Part shown: positions 4,970-26,801 of the stretch, in pieces
Numbering within the stretch: the stretch's first letter is position 1
How the letters are laid out: each line of letters opens with the position of its first letter
Sequence record: PP434423.1
Source: Escherichia phage 236Ecol005PP
Strand: one strand, 5' to 3'
Length of the DNA: 64,000 bases
Notes under the pieces: model-generated
What the model was told of the DNA's origin: nothing
Database searches by the model: none
Seen by the model: only the letters and a program-made list of their open reading frames with translations
Made by a program: the position numbers and the translations under genes

Positions 4970-5394
4970 TGCTTCTGATCCCTGAAACTCATGAATTAGT
5001 TCTCGAGCATGTCGAAGCACTTATTCCTGAAGCACAGGGTCGCTTTGACGAATTGTCTTCTGCTTTAAATAAAGACGATATAAATACAATTGTCGAGAAT
5101 ATGCTTGATGATGAAACTGATTTAGCAGTTGCATTAGCTTCTATTAATGAAAATATGCCGTTAAATGAATTCATTGTTAAGCATGTTTCAGCTCGTGGTG
5201 AAATTACACGTACTAAAGACCGCAAAACACGCGAACGTAATGCATTTCAAACCACTGGGCTGTCTAAAGCAAAACGTAGACAAATTGCTCGCAAAGCTAC
5301 CAAAACGAAGATTGCCAATCCAGCAGGTCAATCTCGTGCTCAGCGTAAGCGTAAAAAAGCTCTTAAACGCCGTAAAGCATTAGGATTAAGCTAA
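4969..5394 (+). CDS. 68: prohead core protein, basic C-terminus
   Basis: 141-aa ORF overlapping stop of previous gene; position between 67 and 21. Confidence 0.7.
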
Positions 5395-6032
5395 TGAATG
5401 AACCCCAATTACTAATTGAAACTTGGGGTCAACCTGGCGAAATTATTGATGGTGTGCCAATGCTTGAATCCCACGATGGAAAAGACTTAGGTTTAAAGCC
5501 GGGTTTATACATCGAAGGAATATTCATGCAAGCGGAAGTCGTCAATAGAAATAAACGTCTTTATCCAAAACGCATATTAGAAAAAGCGGTAAAAGACTAT
5601 ATCAATGAGCAAGTTTTAACTAAACAAGCTCTCGGAGAATTAAATCATCCTCCACGCGCTAATGTTGACCCGATGCAAGCCGCTATCATTATAGAAGATA
5701 TGTGGTGGAAAGGAAATGACGTATACGGACGAGCTCGTGTTATTGAAGGTGACCACGGTCCTGGAGATAAATTAGCAGCTAATATTCGTGCCGGATGGAT
5801 TCCAGGAGTTTCTTCTCGTGGATTAGGTTCATTGACTGACACAAATAAAGGTTATCGTATCGTAAACGAAGGATTCAAATTAACTGTAGGTGTTGATGCA
5901 GTATGGGGTCCAAGTGCTCCAGATGCATGGGTAACTCCTAAGGAAATTACCGAATCACAGACGGCGGAAGCCGATACAAGTGCCGATGACGCCTATATGG
6001 CTCTCGCAGAGGCCATGAAAAAAGCGTTATAA
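5394..6032 (+). CDS. 21: prohead core protease
   Basis: 212-aa ORF, size and position of T4 gp21. Confidence 0.85.
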   Translation: MNEPQLLIETWGQPGEIIDGVPMLESHDGKDLGLKPGLYIEGIFMQAEVVNRNKRLYPKRILEKAVKDYINEQVLTKQALGELNHPPRANVDPMQAAIIIEDMWWKGNDVYGRARVIEGDHGPGDKLAANIRAGWIPGVSSRGLGSLTDTNKGYRIVNEGFKLTVGVDAVWGPSAPDAWVTPKEITESQTAEADTSADDAYMALAEAMKKAL

Positions 6033-6062
6033 ATATTATTATCTAAACAACAGGACTACAAA

Positions 6063-6872
6063 ATGCTTAAAGAACAACTGATTGCTGAAGCGCAAAAAAT
6101 TGATGCTTCCGTTGCTCTTGATAGTATTTTCGAATCAGTTAGTATTTCTCCGGAAGCAAAAGAAACTTTCGGCACTGTATTCGAAGCTACCGTCAAGCAG
6201 CACGCCGTTAAATTAGCTGAATCCCATATCGCTAAAATTGCTGAAAAAGCAGAAGAAGAAGTAGAAAAAAATAAAGAAGAAGCCGAAGAAAAAGCTGAGA
6301 AGAAAATCGCTGAGCAAGCTTCTAAATTCATCGACCATCTTGCGAAAGAATGGCTCGCTGAAAATAAATTAGCAGTTGATAAAGGCATCAAAGCCGAATT
6401 GTTTGAATCCATGCTTGGTGGATTAAAAGAGCTCTTTGTTGAACACAACGTTGTTGTTCCAGAAGAATCAGTTGATATTGTAGCTGAAATGGAAGAAGAG
6501 CTGCAAGAACATAAAGAAGAATCAGCTCGTCTGTTCGAAGAACTCAATATGCGCGACGCATATATCAATTATGTGCAGCGTGAAGTGGCATTGAGCGAAA
6601 GTACTAAAGATCTGACTGAGTCTCAAAAAGAAAAAGTCTCTGCTCTGGTCGAAGGTATGGATTATTCAGATGAATTCTCAAATAAATTGAGTGCCATCGT
6701 AGAAATGGTGAAGAAGTCTAATAAAGATGAAAGCACTATTACTGAGGGTATAAATACTCCTGATACTGAAGCAGCCGGACTGAATTTCGTCACTGAAGCT
6801 GTAGAAGATAAAGCTGCACCTGGTGCAGAAGATATTGTAAGTGTATATGCGAAAGTCGCATCTCGTTTCTAA
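6063..6872 (+). CDS. 22: prohead scaffolding core protein
   Basis: 269-aa highly charged, Glu/Lys/Ala-rich coiled-coil-like ORF immediately upstream of major capsid gene. Confidence 0.85.
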   Translation: MLKEQLIAEAQKIDASVALDSIFESVSISPEAKETFGTVFEATVKQHAVKLAESHIAKIAEKAEEEVEKNKEEAEEKAEKKIAEQASKFIDHLAKEWLAENKLAVDKGIKAELFESMLGGLKELFVEHNVVVPEESVDIVAEMEEELQEHKEESARLFEELNMRDAYINYVQREVALSESTKDLTESQKEKVSALVEGMDYSDEFSNKLSAIVEMVKKSNKDESTITEGINTPDTEAAGLNFVTEAVEDKAAPGAEDIVSVYAKVASRF

Positions 6873-6890
6873 TTTTAAAGGTTAACACAA

Positions 6891-8456
6891 ATGACTATCA
6901 AAACTAAAGCTGAACTTTTGAACAAATGGAAGCCATTACTGGAAGGTGAAGGTTTACCGGAAATTGCTAATAGCAAACAAGCGATTATCGCTAAAATCTT
7001 TGAAAACCAGGAAAAAGATTTCCAGACAGCTCCAGAGTACAAAGACGAAAAAATCGCTCAGGCGTTCGGTTCTTTCTTAACAGAAGCTGAAATCGGTGGT
7101 GACCACGGTTACAATGCTACTAACATCGCTGCAGGTCAGACTTCTGGCGCAGTAACTCAGATTGGCCCAGCTGTTATGGGTATGGTACGTCGTGCTATTC
7201 CTAACCTGATTGCTTTCGATATTTGCGGTGTTCAGCCGATGAACAGCCCGACTGGCCAGGTATTCGCACTGCGCGCAGTATACGGTAAAGACCCGGTCGC
7301 TTCCGGTGCTAAAGAAGCATTCCACCCAATGTATGGTCCAGATGCAATGTTCTCTGGTCAGGGTGCTGCTAAGAAATTCGCTGCTTTGAAAGCAAGTGAT
7401 ACTCTTGAAGTTGGAACTATTTACACCCACTTCTTCCAGGACACTGGTACTGTGTATCTGCAAGCTACAGAAGTTAAGCAAATTGATACTAGTGCAACTG
7501 ACGCAGCTAAATTAGATGCTGAAATTAAGAAACAAATGGAAGCTGGTGTACTGGTAGAAATCGCTGAAGGTATGGCTACTTCTGTCGCTGAACTTCAGGA
7601 AAGTTTCAACGGTTCTACCGATAACCCATGGAATGAAATGGGCTTCCGTATCGATAAACAAGTTATCGAAGCTAAATCTCGCCAGCTGAAAGCTGCTTAC
7701 TCTATCGAATTAGCACAAGACCTCCGCGCTGTTCACGGTATGGATGCTGATGCTGAACTGTCTGGTATTCTGGCTACAGAAATCATGCTGGAAATTAACC
7801 GTGAAGTTGTTGATTGGATTAACTACTCAGCTCAGGTTGGTAAATCTGGTATGACCCTGACTCCGGGTTCTAAAGCTGGTGTATTTGACTTCCAGGATCC
7901 GATTGATATTCGTGGTGCTCGCTGGGCGGGTGAATCCTTTAAAGCTCTGTTGTTCCAGATTGACAAAGAAGCAGTTGAAATTGCTCGTCAGACTGGTCGT
8001 GGTGAAGGTAACTTCATTATCGCTTCCCGTAACGTAGTTAACGTTCTGGCTTCAGTTGATACCGGCATTTCTTATGCTGCACAGGGTCTGGCTACCGGCT
8101 TTAACACTGATACTACCAAGTCAGTATTTGCTGGTGTTCTGGGTGGTAAATACCGTGTATATATCGACCAGTATGCTAAACAGGATTATTTCACTGTAGG
8201 TTATAAAGGTCCGAACGAAATGGATGCTGGTATTTACTATGCTCCATATGTAGCTCTGACTCCGCTGCGTGGTTCCGATCCGAAGAACTTCCAACCAGTA
8301 ATGGGATTCAAAACTCGTTACGGTATCGGTATCAACCCATTTGCAGAATCCGCTGCTCAGGCTCCGGCTTCTCGCATCCAGAGCGGTATGCCTTCTATTC
8401 TGAATAGCCTTGGTAAAAACGCTTACTTCCGCCGTGTATATGTTAAAGGTATCTAA
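6891..8456 (+). CDS. 23: major capsid protein
   Basis: 521-aa ORF whose N-terminus (MTIKTKAELLNKWKPLLEGEGLPEIANSKQAIIAKIFENQEKDF...) matches T4 gp23 as recalled. Confidence 0.95.
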   Translation: MTIKTKAELLNKWKPLLEGEGLPEIANSKQAIIAKIFENQEKDFQTAPEYKDEKIAQAFGSFLTEAEIGGDHGYNATNIAAGQTSGAVTQIGPAVMGMVRRAIPNLIAFDICGVQPMNSPTGQVFALRAVYGKDPVASGAKEAFHPMYGPDAMFSGQGAAKKFAALKASDTLEVGTIYTHFFQDTGTVYLQATEVKQIDTSATDAAKLDAEIKKQMEAGVLVEIAEGMATSVAELQESFNGSTDNPWNEMGFRIDKQVIEAKSRQLKAAYSIELAQDLRAVHGMDADAELSGILATEIMLEINREVVDWINYSAQVGKSGMTLTPGSKAGVFDFQDPIDIRGARWAGESFKALLFQIDKEAVEIARQTGRGEGNFIIASRNVVNVLASVDTGISYAAQGLATGFNTDTTKSVFAGVLGGKYRVYIDQYAKQDYFTVGYKGPNEMDAGIYYAPYVALTPLRGSDPKNFQPVMGFKTRYGIGINPFAESAAQAPASRIQSGMPSILNSLGKNAYFRRVYVKGI

Positions 8457-23960: not shown

Positions 23961-23964
23961 CAAT

Positions 23965-23995
23965 GGGGACCTTTCGGTCCCCATATTTTTATTTA
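23965..23995 (+). terminator. intrinsic terminator after gene 54
   Basis: GGGGACC-TTTC-GGTCCCC hairpin plus T-run. Confidence 0.6.
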
Positions 23996-24279
23996 CGGAA
24001 TGAAATAAAAGCAGCAACTGAAGCAACTAAACTGTCTTCAATATAAACTTCAATTTTTACCGGAGCTTCTGACTCAAATTTACCTGTTACTACACCTTGG
24101 AAAATACTTTCAGTCTGTTCTGGCTTTGAAAAATTTTCAGAAGGAAAAATTCCGAACTTTTTATCTGTTCCAAAAATTTTGATAAATTCATCATAAACTG
24201 CTTCATTAAAAGCATTATCAGCAGGAATAACGCCTTCAACTACAAGTTCTTGACCTAAAAAGCGCAAAGAAGATTTCAT
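23989..24279 (-). CDS. hypothetical protein (96 aa)
   Basis: ORF starting 8 nt downstream of the promoter/SD cassette at 24288-24340. Confidence 0.55.
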   Translation of the reverse strand: MKSSLRFLGQELVVEGVIPADNAFNEAVYDEFIKIFGTDKKFGIFPSENFSKPEQTESIFQGVVTGKFESEAPVKIEVYIEDSLVASVAAFISFRK

Positions 24280-24287
24280 TTTGTGTT

Positions 24288-24340
24288 CCTCATGTTATGT
24301 CAGTAAGATTACTATAACACAACATGAGGGACTTGTAAAC
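24288..24340 (-). promoter_or_regulatory. T4 early-promoter-like cassette (-35 GTTTAC, -10 TATAGT) inside an inverted repeat that contains the SD
   Basis: - strand reads GTTTACAAGTCCCTCATGTTGTGTTATAGTAATCTTACTGACATAACATGAGG; inverted repeat CCTCATGTT/AACATGAGG; second copy at 38143-38195. Confidence 0.55.
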
Positions 24341-24697
24341 TACATTTTGAACTTTTTAGTACGCGTAATAGGCATGCGTCGATTTTATACTGTTTCATTG
24401 TTTGAAGAGCAGTATCAAAAACAGCATTAATGACACCAATTGGATTTCCGCCCAAGTTTTTAAGCTTAACTAATGATAGTTTCTCATTAACACCTATCAT
24501 TACGATATGCATCATTTTATCGCCCGGCTTAACGTTTTATTCGTATCACCGCCAGAGGTGTATGTACAAAATCTAAATCCAGGAAGCACACTTTCTTCAC
24601 CGGCTTGAATAGCAAAAATTTGAGGTATTTTATGCTTAGGATTTAAGTTAACAACCGGCGCCGAAGCGCCGTCAAATAATTCTGTAATAAGTTCCAT
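24312..24697 (-). pseudogene. frameshifted paralog of the Alt N-terminal region
   Basis: Track ORFs 24512..24697 and 24312..24515 together align with Alt residues about 2-125 (MELITELFD...KIPQIF...GFRFCTYTSGGDTN / MMHIV...KQYKIDACLLRVLKS) in two frames. Confidence 0.65.
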
Positions 24698-24700
24698 GAT

Positions 24701-26752
24701 TTATCCTTGAACGAACTTGTAAGGCATGTTTGCAATATCTATGCAAGACGCAATAATTCCAAGAGATGATTCTGCTTTCTGTTTAACATTTGATGAAACA
24801 AACGATGCAAAGTCAACTCTATCTTCTATATCACCTGTCATTGTAACCAATTCACCAGTTTCCATTAAACGGTCACCGTCATAAATTACCGATTCGGTGA
24901 GTTCTTCTGTGGTCATAACTTCAGCTTGAATAAGCTTGTTGTTAGTTCTAACTGTTCCATCGTTGTAAGATGCATCAGTTATTTTATTAACTTTGACCAT
25001 TAATCCACGTGGCAAAATGACTTCCATTTCATTTGAAGGCGCTAAACTTCCACCGGGTAAAACAACATTGACTTTATCAGCCCCAGTAATAACCCATCCA
25101 ATTCCAACTAAATTATCGCTAGAATTTACAAGTCCTTCATCAGTTTTATCAATAGAAACACTTAAACGCTTTTCGTCTGGTAAAACACCCACAGATGAAT
25201 CAGTCATCCAAGTACCAAAAATATTTGGATATAATGATGTTGACACAAAGTTTCTAAAATAAAAAACTCGATTTTTTACCATTGCTTCGTATATTGAAGG
25301 TAACATTCGTTGTGAACGATACAAAGTAATACCTTTTGGTAATCGTTCACCATTTTTAAAGGCTGAATCTAAATTATCAATGGCTTGTTCTATTTCAGGT
25401 GCTGTTAAAATACTTGTACGCTCATCTGGATTATATAATCCCAAAAGAGCATTATTCATGTCTACATATCCTGAACCTACATATTCACGAATTCCGCGTT
25501 TTTGCGCTGGTGTGTATTTAGATGAATCTTTATTTTCGACTATAGGATGTAATGACCATCCAGCGGTAAGAGCATATCCACGTAATTCTCTTCGAATAAT
25601 CTTTGTTTTTATTGCATTCCAAGAATTTTGTACTAACTCATTTGCAGCATCTTGGTTTAAATGCGAATGTCTGTTAATATTTCTTTCAAACCAAGCACCT
25701 TTATATTTTTCTAAAGTATCATCGACGATAGAAGCAATAGTTTCTAAAGTTTTTATTGAAGTAATAGATTCTTTTCGTAATTTTTCTAAAGCTTTATTTT
25801 TTATTTCTGCATTAATAATGGATTCTTTATCTTCAGGAATTATAGAAGCTTCTCTGAATGCCATCCCAGCTGTAACACTGCTAAGAGCATTCTCTAATGC
25901 AAATCCTGAAGTAGAAATAACAGTTAATTCGTTAGCATCAGAAATTAAAGGCGCGTCGGCGGGTTTATTTAATTCTGCTGCTGAAGCCTCAAATTTTTGA
26001 AACATTGGTGTTTCAAATCTAGAAGATTCCAATGACTGACTTTGTGCAATTGCTCTACGGGAAATTTTAACTTTAACAATAACAGCTTGGTCAGAACGTT
26101 TATCATTTTCTTGCGCAATAGATGCAGCAATTGCCTCATTTTTAGTTACTTGAGCTCCAGTATCTTTATTGATATAAACATCACCGACCTTCGATTCAAC
26201 TTTAGTAAAGAGCTCGGTGCTAATTTCCGGAACTCCTGGAATGTCTTCTAGTGATACATTTTTGCGATGTATAAGAATATATGCATACTTTTTATCGTAA
26301 TCCCAGAGTTCCTTAAGAAGGACGTATCTGCCACCTGAACGACTGCGGATAAGTCTATCAGCAATAACTTGAATTTGTCGAGCTTGACCAGCAGTTTTAG
26401 ACTTAAGAATACGAAGCATGCAGGCATCAATTTTATACTGACGCATCGTTTGCATCGCAACAGTAAAAACTGAATTGATGTAATTAATTGGGCTTGGACC
26501 GAGACCTTTTAATTTAGCAATTGAACCTTTAGCAGTTAATGTAAAAGGAACGATGTGCATCATTTTATCGCCCATCTTTAAATCACGGTTAGTATCACCT
26601 CCAGATGTATAAGTACATAAACGAAAGCCTGGTTGTTCTATTGCGTCATCAACATGAACTGAAAAAATTTGTGGTATTTTCTTCTTTGGATACAAATTTG
26701 TAATCGGAAGAGTAGTATTTTCGTCAAATAATTCTGTAATAAGTTCCATCAT
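24701..26752 (-). CDS. alt: ADP-ribosyltransferase Alt
   Basis: 683-aa ORF in T4 alt position between gene 54 and DNA ligase. Confidence 0.8.
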   Translation of the reverse strand: MMELITELFDENTTLPITNLYPKKKIPQIFSVHVDDAIEQPGFRLCTYTSGGDTNRDLKMGDKMMHIVPFTLTAKGSIAKLKGLGPSPINYINSVFTVAMQTMRQYKIDACMLRILKSKTAGQARQIQVIADRLIRSRSGGRYVLLKELWDYDKKYAYILIHRKNVSLEDIPGVPEISTELFTKVESKVGDVYINKDTGAQVTKNEAIAASIAQENDKRSDQAVIVKVKISRRAIAQSQSLESSRFETPMFQKFEASAAELNKPADAPLISDANELTVISTSGFALENALSSVTAGMAFREASIIPEDKESIINAEIKNKALEKLRKESITSIKTLETIASIVDDTLEKYKGAWFERNINRHSHLNQDAANELVQNSWNAIKTKIIRRELRGYALTAGWSLHPIVENKDSSKYTPAQKRGIREYVGSGYVDMNNALLGLYNPDERTSILTAPEIEQAIDNLDSAFKNGERLPKGITLYRSQRMLPSIYEAMVKNRVFYFRNFVSTSLYPNIFGTWMTDSSVGVLPDEKRLSVSIDKTDEGLVNSSDNLVGIGWVITGADKVNVVLPGGSLAPSNEMEVILPRGLMVKVNKITDASYNDGTVRTNNKLIQAEVMTTEELTESVIYDGDRLMETGELVTMTGDIEDRVDFASFVSSNVKQKAESSLGIIASCIDIANMPYKFVQG

Positions 26753-26801
26753 ATCCTCTCTAGTGTTTATTCTATTTATAAAATTAAAGGCCCGAAGGCC
26801 T

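Follow-up and report, generated by a model that had tools for sequence, protein, structure and literature searches.

Two short open reading frames beside alt in a T4-type phage: very probably a decaying remnant of a second, tandem Alt-like ADP-ribosyltransferase gene

The 64,000-nucleotide stretch of Escherichia phage 236Ecol005PP analyzed here (sequence record PP434423.1; hereafter the window) carries two short open reading frames directly downstream of the gene for the Alt ADP-ribosyltransferase. The two frames differ in register, and together they resemble the beginning of Alt. The questions raised by this locus are where the pair came from, and whether the peptides that it could encode still serve the phage.

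The window belongs to a T4-type phage (Tequatrovirus). The DNA around the two open reading frames is 99.8% identical to that of Pu-Krd-SF3/SF4 and ~98% identical to that of T4. The order of genes on the minus strand is DNA ligase, alt.1, alt, alt.-1, alt.-2, and alt.-3, followed by the convergent baseplate genes 54 and 48. This order is the one annotated in T4, where alt.-1 and alt.-2 immediately follow alt and precede alt.-3 and gene 54. The first open reading frame, alt.-1 (24512..24697, minus strand), encodes 61 amino acids and includes the peptide IPQIFAIQAGEESVLPGFR. The second, alt.-2 (24312..24515, minus strand), encodes 67 amino acids and includes the peptide NLGGNPIGVINAVFDTALQTMK. 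The two are in different frames with an ATGA overlap, and these coordinates agree with those given in an earlier, sequence-only reading of the locus. Full-length profile matches were obtained for alt.-1 with phrog_23015 (E 1.7e-46 over 1-61/61) and for alt.-2 with phrog_15247 (E 8e-49 over 1-67/67). A Shine-Dalgarno sequence, AAGGA, is found 6 bases before the ATG of alt.-1, and the encoded N-terminus, MELITELFD, is the same as the first 9 residues of Alt. The pair is T4 genes alt.-1 (T4p199, P39495) and alt.-2 (T4p198, P39494). The locus, the lengths of 61 and 67 amino acids, and the frameshift and deletion junction described below are all shared with T4, and the ~98% DNA identity leaves few substitutions. 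The feature is thus real, ordinary, and previously annotated.

Previously, alt.-1 and alt.-2 were described in the T4 RefSeq note as an apparent duplicate of the initial portion of alt that has a stop codon and a new start inside, and they were listed by Nolan et al. 2006 (PMC1524935) as paralogous duplications of alt. The corresponding copy in the fPS-2 record is labeled "putative pseudogene", and the RB32 record carries the note "apparent insertion in alt.-2; similar to alt". The fPS-2 and RB32 annotations are independent of the present analysis and compatible with the reading of the pair as a remnant.

The neighboring alt gene (24701..26752, minus strand) is an intact 683-aa open reading frame for the Alt ADP-ribosyltransferase, and it is the paralog that the pair resembles. 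Alt consists of an N-terminal module of ~238 aa and an ADP-ribosyltransferase (ART) domain at residues 375-615 (PF03496, E 1.3e-33). The alt gene of the window is a mosaic relative to that of EC121. Identity is 93% over the first 866 nt and ~80% over the last third, and a central portion of ~410 nt (25523-25934, minus strand) has no blastn match in the EC121 alt. The Alt proteins are 683 aa in the window and 697 aa in EC121. On the other side of the pair, alt.-3 (23989..24279, minus strand; 96 aa, DUF5498) is present in genomes that carry the remnant and in those that carry the full-length gene described below. A perfect hairpin with a 9-bp stem, 6 G-C pairs, and T-runs on both strands is found at 23963-23984 between the convergent alt.-3 and gene 54. 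It has the look of a bidirectional terminator, and a terminator is annotated in R5505, fPS-2, and Lutter.

The similarity to Alt was measured in three ways. The unsplit form of alt.-1/alt.-2 aligns with residues 2-118 of the window Alt with 72 identities in 117 positions (62%, E 1e-48). In PHROG 802 (Alt-like ART), alt.-1 matches profile positions 2-59 (E 7.7e-19) and alt.-2 matches positions 64-120 (E 8.5e-20). The DNA from 24351 to 24697 is 66.3% identical to the 5' end of alt, against 48.2 +/- 1.4% for shuffled sequences. The sequence-only reading had proposed a paralog of the N-terminal region of Alt that is frameshifted and has decayed, and this proposal is correct. The similarity had been said to extend over Alt residues ~2-125. 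It holds for residues 2-118 and stops there; the 7 C-terminal residues of alt.-1 and the 12 C-terminal residues of alt.-2 bear no resemblance to Alt. The match to PHROG 802 covers positions 2-120 of 674 only. No match to Pfam was obtained for alt.-1, alt.-2, or the fused form, whereas Alt itself matches PF03496 at 375-615. Compared with T4 Alt (gpAlt, the head-packaged RNA polymerase ADP-ribosyltransferase), to whose residues 2-118 the pair is 62% identical, MELITELFD included, the pair has no ART domain, half of the N-terminal module only, and a broken frame. It is the remnant of a paralog and not an Alt.

The relatives of the window reveal what this paralog is. A megablast search of 50,697 phage records with the 386-base stretch found matches in 491 genomes, from which 60 were sampled at even spacing. 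Of these 60, 48 match positions 1-347 of the query only (a 348-base span), and this span falls under one long coding sequence for an Alt-like ADP-ribosyltransferase. An intact second Alt-like ADP-ribosyltransferase of the 685-aa type occupies the same position in ~400 of 492 Tequatrovirus records. The long and short states were counted from BLAST span lengths in the phage collection. The word-indexed protein searches were too sparse for this purpose (3 matches with the 128-aa fused form and 5 with the 238-aa module). In EC121, RB5, and R5505 the gene is 2,058 nt long (685 aa) and is located between alt and alt.-3. The EC121 copy is at 5001-7058 of the fetched locus (L008), and the same gene is present in loci L009, L010, and L024-L029. 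The start of the long gene was also confirmed in T2, RB32, phiD1, G4507, JB75, and Sf24. Full-length examples include EC121 YP_010067877.1, RB32 "alt.-2" ABI95018.1, T2 XYW65519.1, and Sf24 gp47.

The second paralog is co-linear with Alt, with 41% identity over 683 aa and ~70% identity over the first 238 residues, and it has its own ART region. Its middle portion and ART region are divergent from those of Alt. The first 348 nt of the full-length gene are orthologous to the remnant (93-97% identity), and position, start context, and the site of an A-run are also shared. The two differ in that the full-length gene encodes 685 aa, with the full ~238-aa module and the ART domain, an in-frame A5, and no lesions, whereas the window is without codons 117-680. 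In the literature searched, no study was found of the function, targets, or packaging of the second enzyme.

The missing codons are accounted for by a single deletion. In the EC121 locus, copies of the 9-base direct repeat CTAAAAAGT are found at 5340-5348 and 7039-7047. When the window is compared with EC121 by BLAST, the match to the paralog continues up to locus position 5348 and resumes at 7039, with 9 query bases shared between the two segments. Both breakpoints are CTAAAAAGT, of which a single copy survives in the window at 24351..24359 (minus strand), and 1,699 bp are missing, a length that is not a multiple of 3. Only 116 of the ~238 residues of the N-terminal module are left. After the junction, the last 11 coding bases of the paralog, its stop codon, and the downstream spacer are read out of frame as SKCSLQVPHVVL. 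The former TAG stop of the full-length paralog is still visible at 24340..24342 (minus strand), where it is read through out of frame by alt.-2. Codons 1-55 of alt.-2 correspond to paralog residues 62-116, starting from a conserved internal Met-Met, and its last 12 codons, SKCSLQVPHVVL, come from reading out of frame across the junction and into the alt.-3 promoter.

At least 80% of a junction-spanning query was covered in 90 of the 492 records, so that roughly one genome in five carries the deletion. Those sampled among the remaining records match no further than the junction and fall under one long Alt-like coding sequence. The junction string itself is present in the window and in 18 retrieved remnant loci. 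These 18 loci represent 16 distinct phages, since two of the IMG/VR contigs are included twice. In AV121, which can also be aligned across this junction, one base differs immediately after the searched string. The local partial duplication of the 5' region of alt suggested by the sequence-only reading is thus replaced by a 1,699-bp deletion within a complete tandem alt paralog that is intact in ~400 of the 492 records. This corrected history is the only addition made here to what had been annotated.

The split into two frames has a separate cause. Codons 1-54 of alt.-1 are the ancestral N-terminus of the second paralog (MELITELFDG...GGDTNK), and its last 7 codons (TLSRAIK) and TGA stop are out of frame after a lesion in an A-run. 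This run is A4 in the window (AATAAAACG, 24535..24538, minus strand) and A5 (AATAAAAACG) in the intact paralogs and unsplit remnants. In SYGD1 the deletion is present and the remnant is a single 128-codon open reading frame that differs from the window by one homopolymer base (AATAAAAACG versus AATAAAACG); N2 is an exact BLAST match to SYGD1. The loss of one A is therefore what splits the 128-codon remnant into alt.-1 and alt.-2, and the frame change occurs at 24535-24538, ~20 bases upstream of the junction near 24512 that had been proposed before. At 24507..24518 (minus strand), the sequence AAAATGATGCAT encodes conserved Lys-Met-Met-His residues that are also found in alt itself. After the upstream frameshift, alt.-1 ends at the TGA in this sequence, and alt.-2 starts at its ATG. 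No separate mutation is needed for the ATGA overlap, because the TGA and ATG are already inside the conserved AAA-ATG-ATG codons. The overlap is a by-product of one base deletion and not an evolved coupling signal. Pattern scans of IMG/VR provided two A4 loci and two A5 loci; the latter were considered as unsplit remnants and rejected, since both are full-length genes.

The decay of the remnant was followed in an alignment of 18 remnants, picked for diversity and not at random, with 11 intact genes. Codon 6 is changed from GAA to TAA, a stop, in 11 of the 18 remnants. A5 is shortened to A4 in 13, and T5 is shortened to T4 near codon 93 in three (PD112, IME537, and CE1). None of these changes appears in the 11 intact genes. 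The A5 is in frame in all 11 intact genes and in 5/18 remnants, and an unbroken 128-codon open reading frame is found in two remnants (SYGD1 and AV121), a category that does not apply to the intact genes. Among the best 60 of the 90 junction-spanning records, the span is 272 bases in 4, 271 in 50, and 270 in 6. The 1,699-bp deletion, the A5 to A4 change, the codon-6 stop, and the T5 to T4 change occur in varying combinations, and recombination among T-even phages blurs the number of independent events behind them.

The ratio of nonsynonymous to synonymous private variants is 10:5 for the remnants and 1:13 for the intact genes (Fisher p = 0.0017). The corresponding pN/pS values of 0.56 and 0.02 are approximate, being simple counts scaled by sites and not derived from a phylogenetic model. 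By these counts, the N-terminus of the intact gene is strongly constrained, and the constraint on the remnant is relaxed. The value for the remnants is based on 15 variants and is compatible with 1 or with mild constraint. The locus thus combines an intact ortholog at the same position in close relatives, disabling lesions of which several are independent, and relaxed constraint, as is expected of a pseudogene.

Structure prediction bears on whether the surviving stump could be a whole domain. An exhaustive HMMER search with Alt residues 1-238 provided 70 cluster representatives, of which ~60 are proteins of 600-710 aa in which the whole 1-238 stretch is matched at the N-terminus as one unit of ~235 aa. 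The N-terminal module was modeled with AlphaFold2 (54-sequence alignment) as one confident alpha/beta unit with a mean pLDDT of 88 and a pTM of 0.83. Residue 116 lies in the middle of the predicted fold, right after the strand at 109-115, and the next two helices and four strands are absent from the remnant. The A-run split falls between the predicted strands at 39-46 and 63-71. According to this model the remnant, with residues 1-116 of a complete module of ~235-240 aa, is half of a single predicted fold.

Other similarities of the Alt N-terminal module (residues 1-240, window 26030-26749) were also recorded. In BFVD, weaker structural matches (TM ~0.4-0.5, E 1e-4 to 1e-7) are found in other large phage proteins, at their N-terminal ends; the annotations of these proteins include deaminase, ParB/sulfiredoxin, Zeta toxin, and acetyltransferase domains. 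These model-based matches hint at a shared head-delivery module with swappable effectors. The similarity to structures in the PDB is marginal and GNAT-like. No match to local Pfam-A was obtained for the Alt N-terminal region, and a precomputed Pfam label, PF26846.1, is attached to this region in database matches (P0001, P0004-P0007).

The results described above make it very probable that alt.-1/alt.-2 is a nonfunctional remnant, still decaying, of a tandemly arranged second gene for an Alt-like ADP-ribosyltransferase. The ancestor carried alt, the 685-aa alt paralog, and alt.-3, an arrangement that most Tequatroviruses, T2 and RB32 included, have kept. The 1,699-bp deletion between the copies of CTAAAAAGT then removed codons 117-680 of the paralog, so that the distal half of the N-terminal module was lost together with the entire ART domain. 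What remained was an open reading frame of 128 codons, the final 12 of which run out of frame through the alt.-3 promoter. One A was subsequently lost from A5 in the lineage that includes T4 and the window, such that the new frame meets the TGA in AAA-ATG-ATG and the Met codons reopen the old frame. With this stop and restart, two overlapping open reading frames are called by gene finders as alt.-1 and alt.-2. Other disabling lesions are present in sister lineages. The stretch is probably still transcribed, given its location between alt and alt.-3, and the peptides, if made, would have no selected function. The DNA of the remnant would persist because it is young and because its 3' end holds the alt.-3 promoter.

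This promoter is represented by a sigma-70-type promoter-like site at 24311..24339 (minus strand), inside the tail of alt.-2 and upstream of alt.-3. It consists of TTTACA, a 17-base spacer, and a TG-extended TATAGT, with 10 of 12 matches. It is the best sigma-70-like site on this strand, and a promoter is annotated at the same place in Lutter. The right-hand end of the deletion is 11 bases before the -35 hexamer, which is a plausible reason for the retention of the right end of the stump. A late-promoter motif, TATAAATA, is found upstream of alt at 26773..26780 (minus strand), and no such motif is found between alt and the remnant. The remnant should therefore be cotranscribed with alt. In a T4 time-course omics study (PMC9697503 Table S2), alt.-3 is early in RNA and protein. 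The alt.-1 and alt.-2 RNAs are detected and classed as "middle", and neither protein is detected (Class_P = NA). The latter is weak evidence, since small proteins are easily missed by mass spectrometry.

Transcription of the region, the good Shine-Dalgarno sequence of alt.-1, and the fact that both frames are open in the window and in T4 count against a mere remnant. These same observations are what favor the alternative of a function for at least one of the two small proteins. Alt.-1, for instance, shares MELITELFD with Alt and retains the N-terminal propeptide of Alt, and it might enter the prohead core or compete with Alt for packaging or for processing by the gp21 protease. A small N-terminal peptide is removed from gpAlt by gp21, and the localization of core proteins is described as unresolved (PMC9958956). 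Capsid-targeting sequences of the IPII/IPIII type are N-terminal stretches of ~10 aa by which proteins are directed to the prohead core. According to the same review (PMC9958956), the defined capsid-targeting sequence is common to IPII and IPIII and is not found in other core proteins. RNA from the region is present during T4 infection. Against this alternative, the codon-6 stop interrupts alt.-1 in 11 of the 18 remnant carriers and alt.-2 is also truncated in three. Constraint is relaxed, only half of one predicted fold is encoded, and the proteins are undetected in T4 proteomics. Functional peptides are unlikely on this evidence. The earlier suggestion that a surviving fragment might still be packaged is likewise weakened by the codon-6 stop, the relaxed selection, and the proteomic nondetection.

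It is rather less probable still that the stump has a role of another kind. If translated late, from the transcript of alt, Alt.-1 could become part of the prohead core, or it could titrate the factor that recruits or processes Alt, and so tune the amount of packaged Alt. Alternatively, the 348 nt could serve as a homology arm through which a second alt cassette is regained by recombination during coinfection.

The origin of the locus has also been read in the opposite direction from the deletion proposed here. In this alternative, only the first part of alt was duplicated locally, and the long gene found elsewhere is a later insertion into the short one. The duplication is stated in the T4 RefSeq note, and the polarity is implied by the "apparent insertion in alt.-2" of the RB32 note. 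The long form, however, is homologous to, and co-linear with, the whole of Alt (41% identity over 683 aa), encodes an ART domain of its own, and is under strong purifying selection. The tail of the short form consists of the last 11 coding bases and the stop codon of the long gene, out of frame, and breakpoints in a 9-base direct repeat are a signature of deletion. The long form is also the majority state across named Tequatrovirus species. This alternative is highly improbable in view of these features. The present comparison differs from the T4 record on two points. The record describes a duplication of the first part of alt, whereas a deletion remnant of a complete paralog is found here; and the stop and start that the record regards as newly introduced are both inherent in the conserved Lys-Met-Met codons.

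The locus was also searched for signals that would join the two frames during expression. The frames can be rejoined only within 24 bases, from the TAA that opens the alt.-2 frame to the TGA that closes alt.-1, and the only sequence among these bases that would permit re-pairing is the A AAA T beside the stop codon. No X XXY YYZ heptamer is found at the frame change (GAATAAAACG). The 83 nt of downstream RNA have a predicted folding energy of -15.5 kcal/mol (z = -1.0), and 33 of 200 shuffled sequences fold as well, so that the stability of this RNA is unremarkable. Programmed -1 ribosomal frameshifting or slippage at the A-run, which would yield one 128-aa product and which the sequence-only reading had offered as an option, is scarcely credible: the two frames are together co-linear with Alt and the ATA AAA TGA at the end of alt.-1 would let tRNA-Lys slip back by one base onto A AAA, after which reading would proceed into ATG ATG, but the 4-base A-run has no slippery heptamer and is too short for efficient transcriptional slippage, the downstream structure is ordinary, the split is not conserved given the in-frame A5 of all intact genes and some remnants, the codon-6 stops, and the second frameshifts, and the fused product would be a truncated half-domain anyway.

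The reading of alt.-1/alt.-2 as a deletion remnant matters mostly for annotation. The note in the T4 reference record should be changed to describe what a deletion has left of a second, full-length alt-type gene. Stubs of 61, 67, or 92 aa are labeled "ADP-ribosyltransferase" or "RNA polymerase-ADP-ribosyltransferase" in HMD-9 (L003), F26 (L030), ELT1 (L011), and SG1 (L012). Such labels are misleading because no catalytic domain is present. In HMD-9, alt.-3 is labeled "tail length tape-measure protein". Partial proteins deposited under Enterococcus faecalis (P0006 and P0008) and Escherichia coli (P0007) are 99-100% identical to the N-terminus of the T4-type Alt, and the Enterococcus deposits are most likely T4-like phage DNA contaminating a bacterial assembly.

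For the biology of the family, the comparison places T4, the model phage, in the minority state at this locus. Two distinct enzymes of the Alt type are encoded, if not also injected, by most of its relatives.
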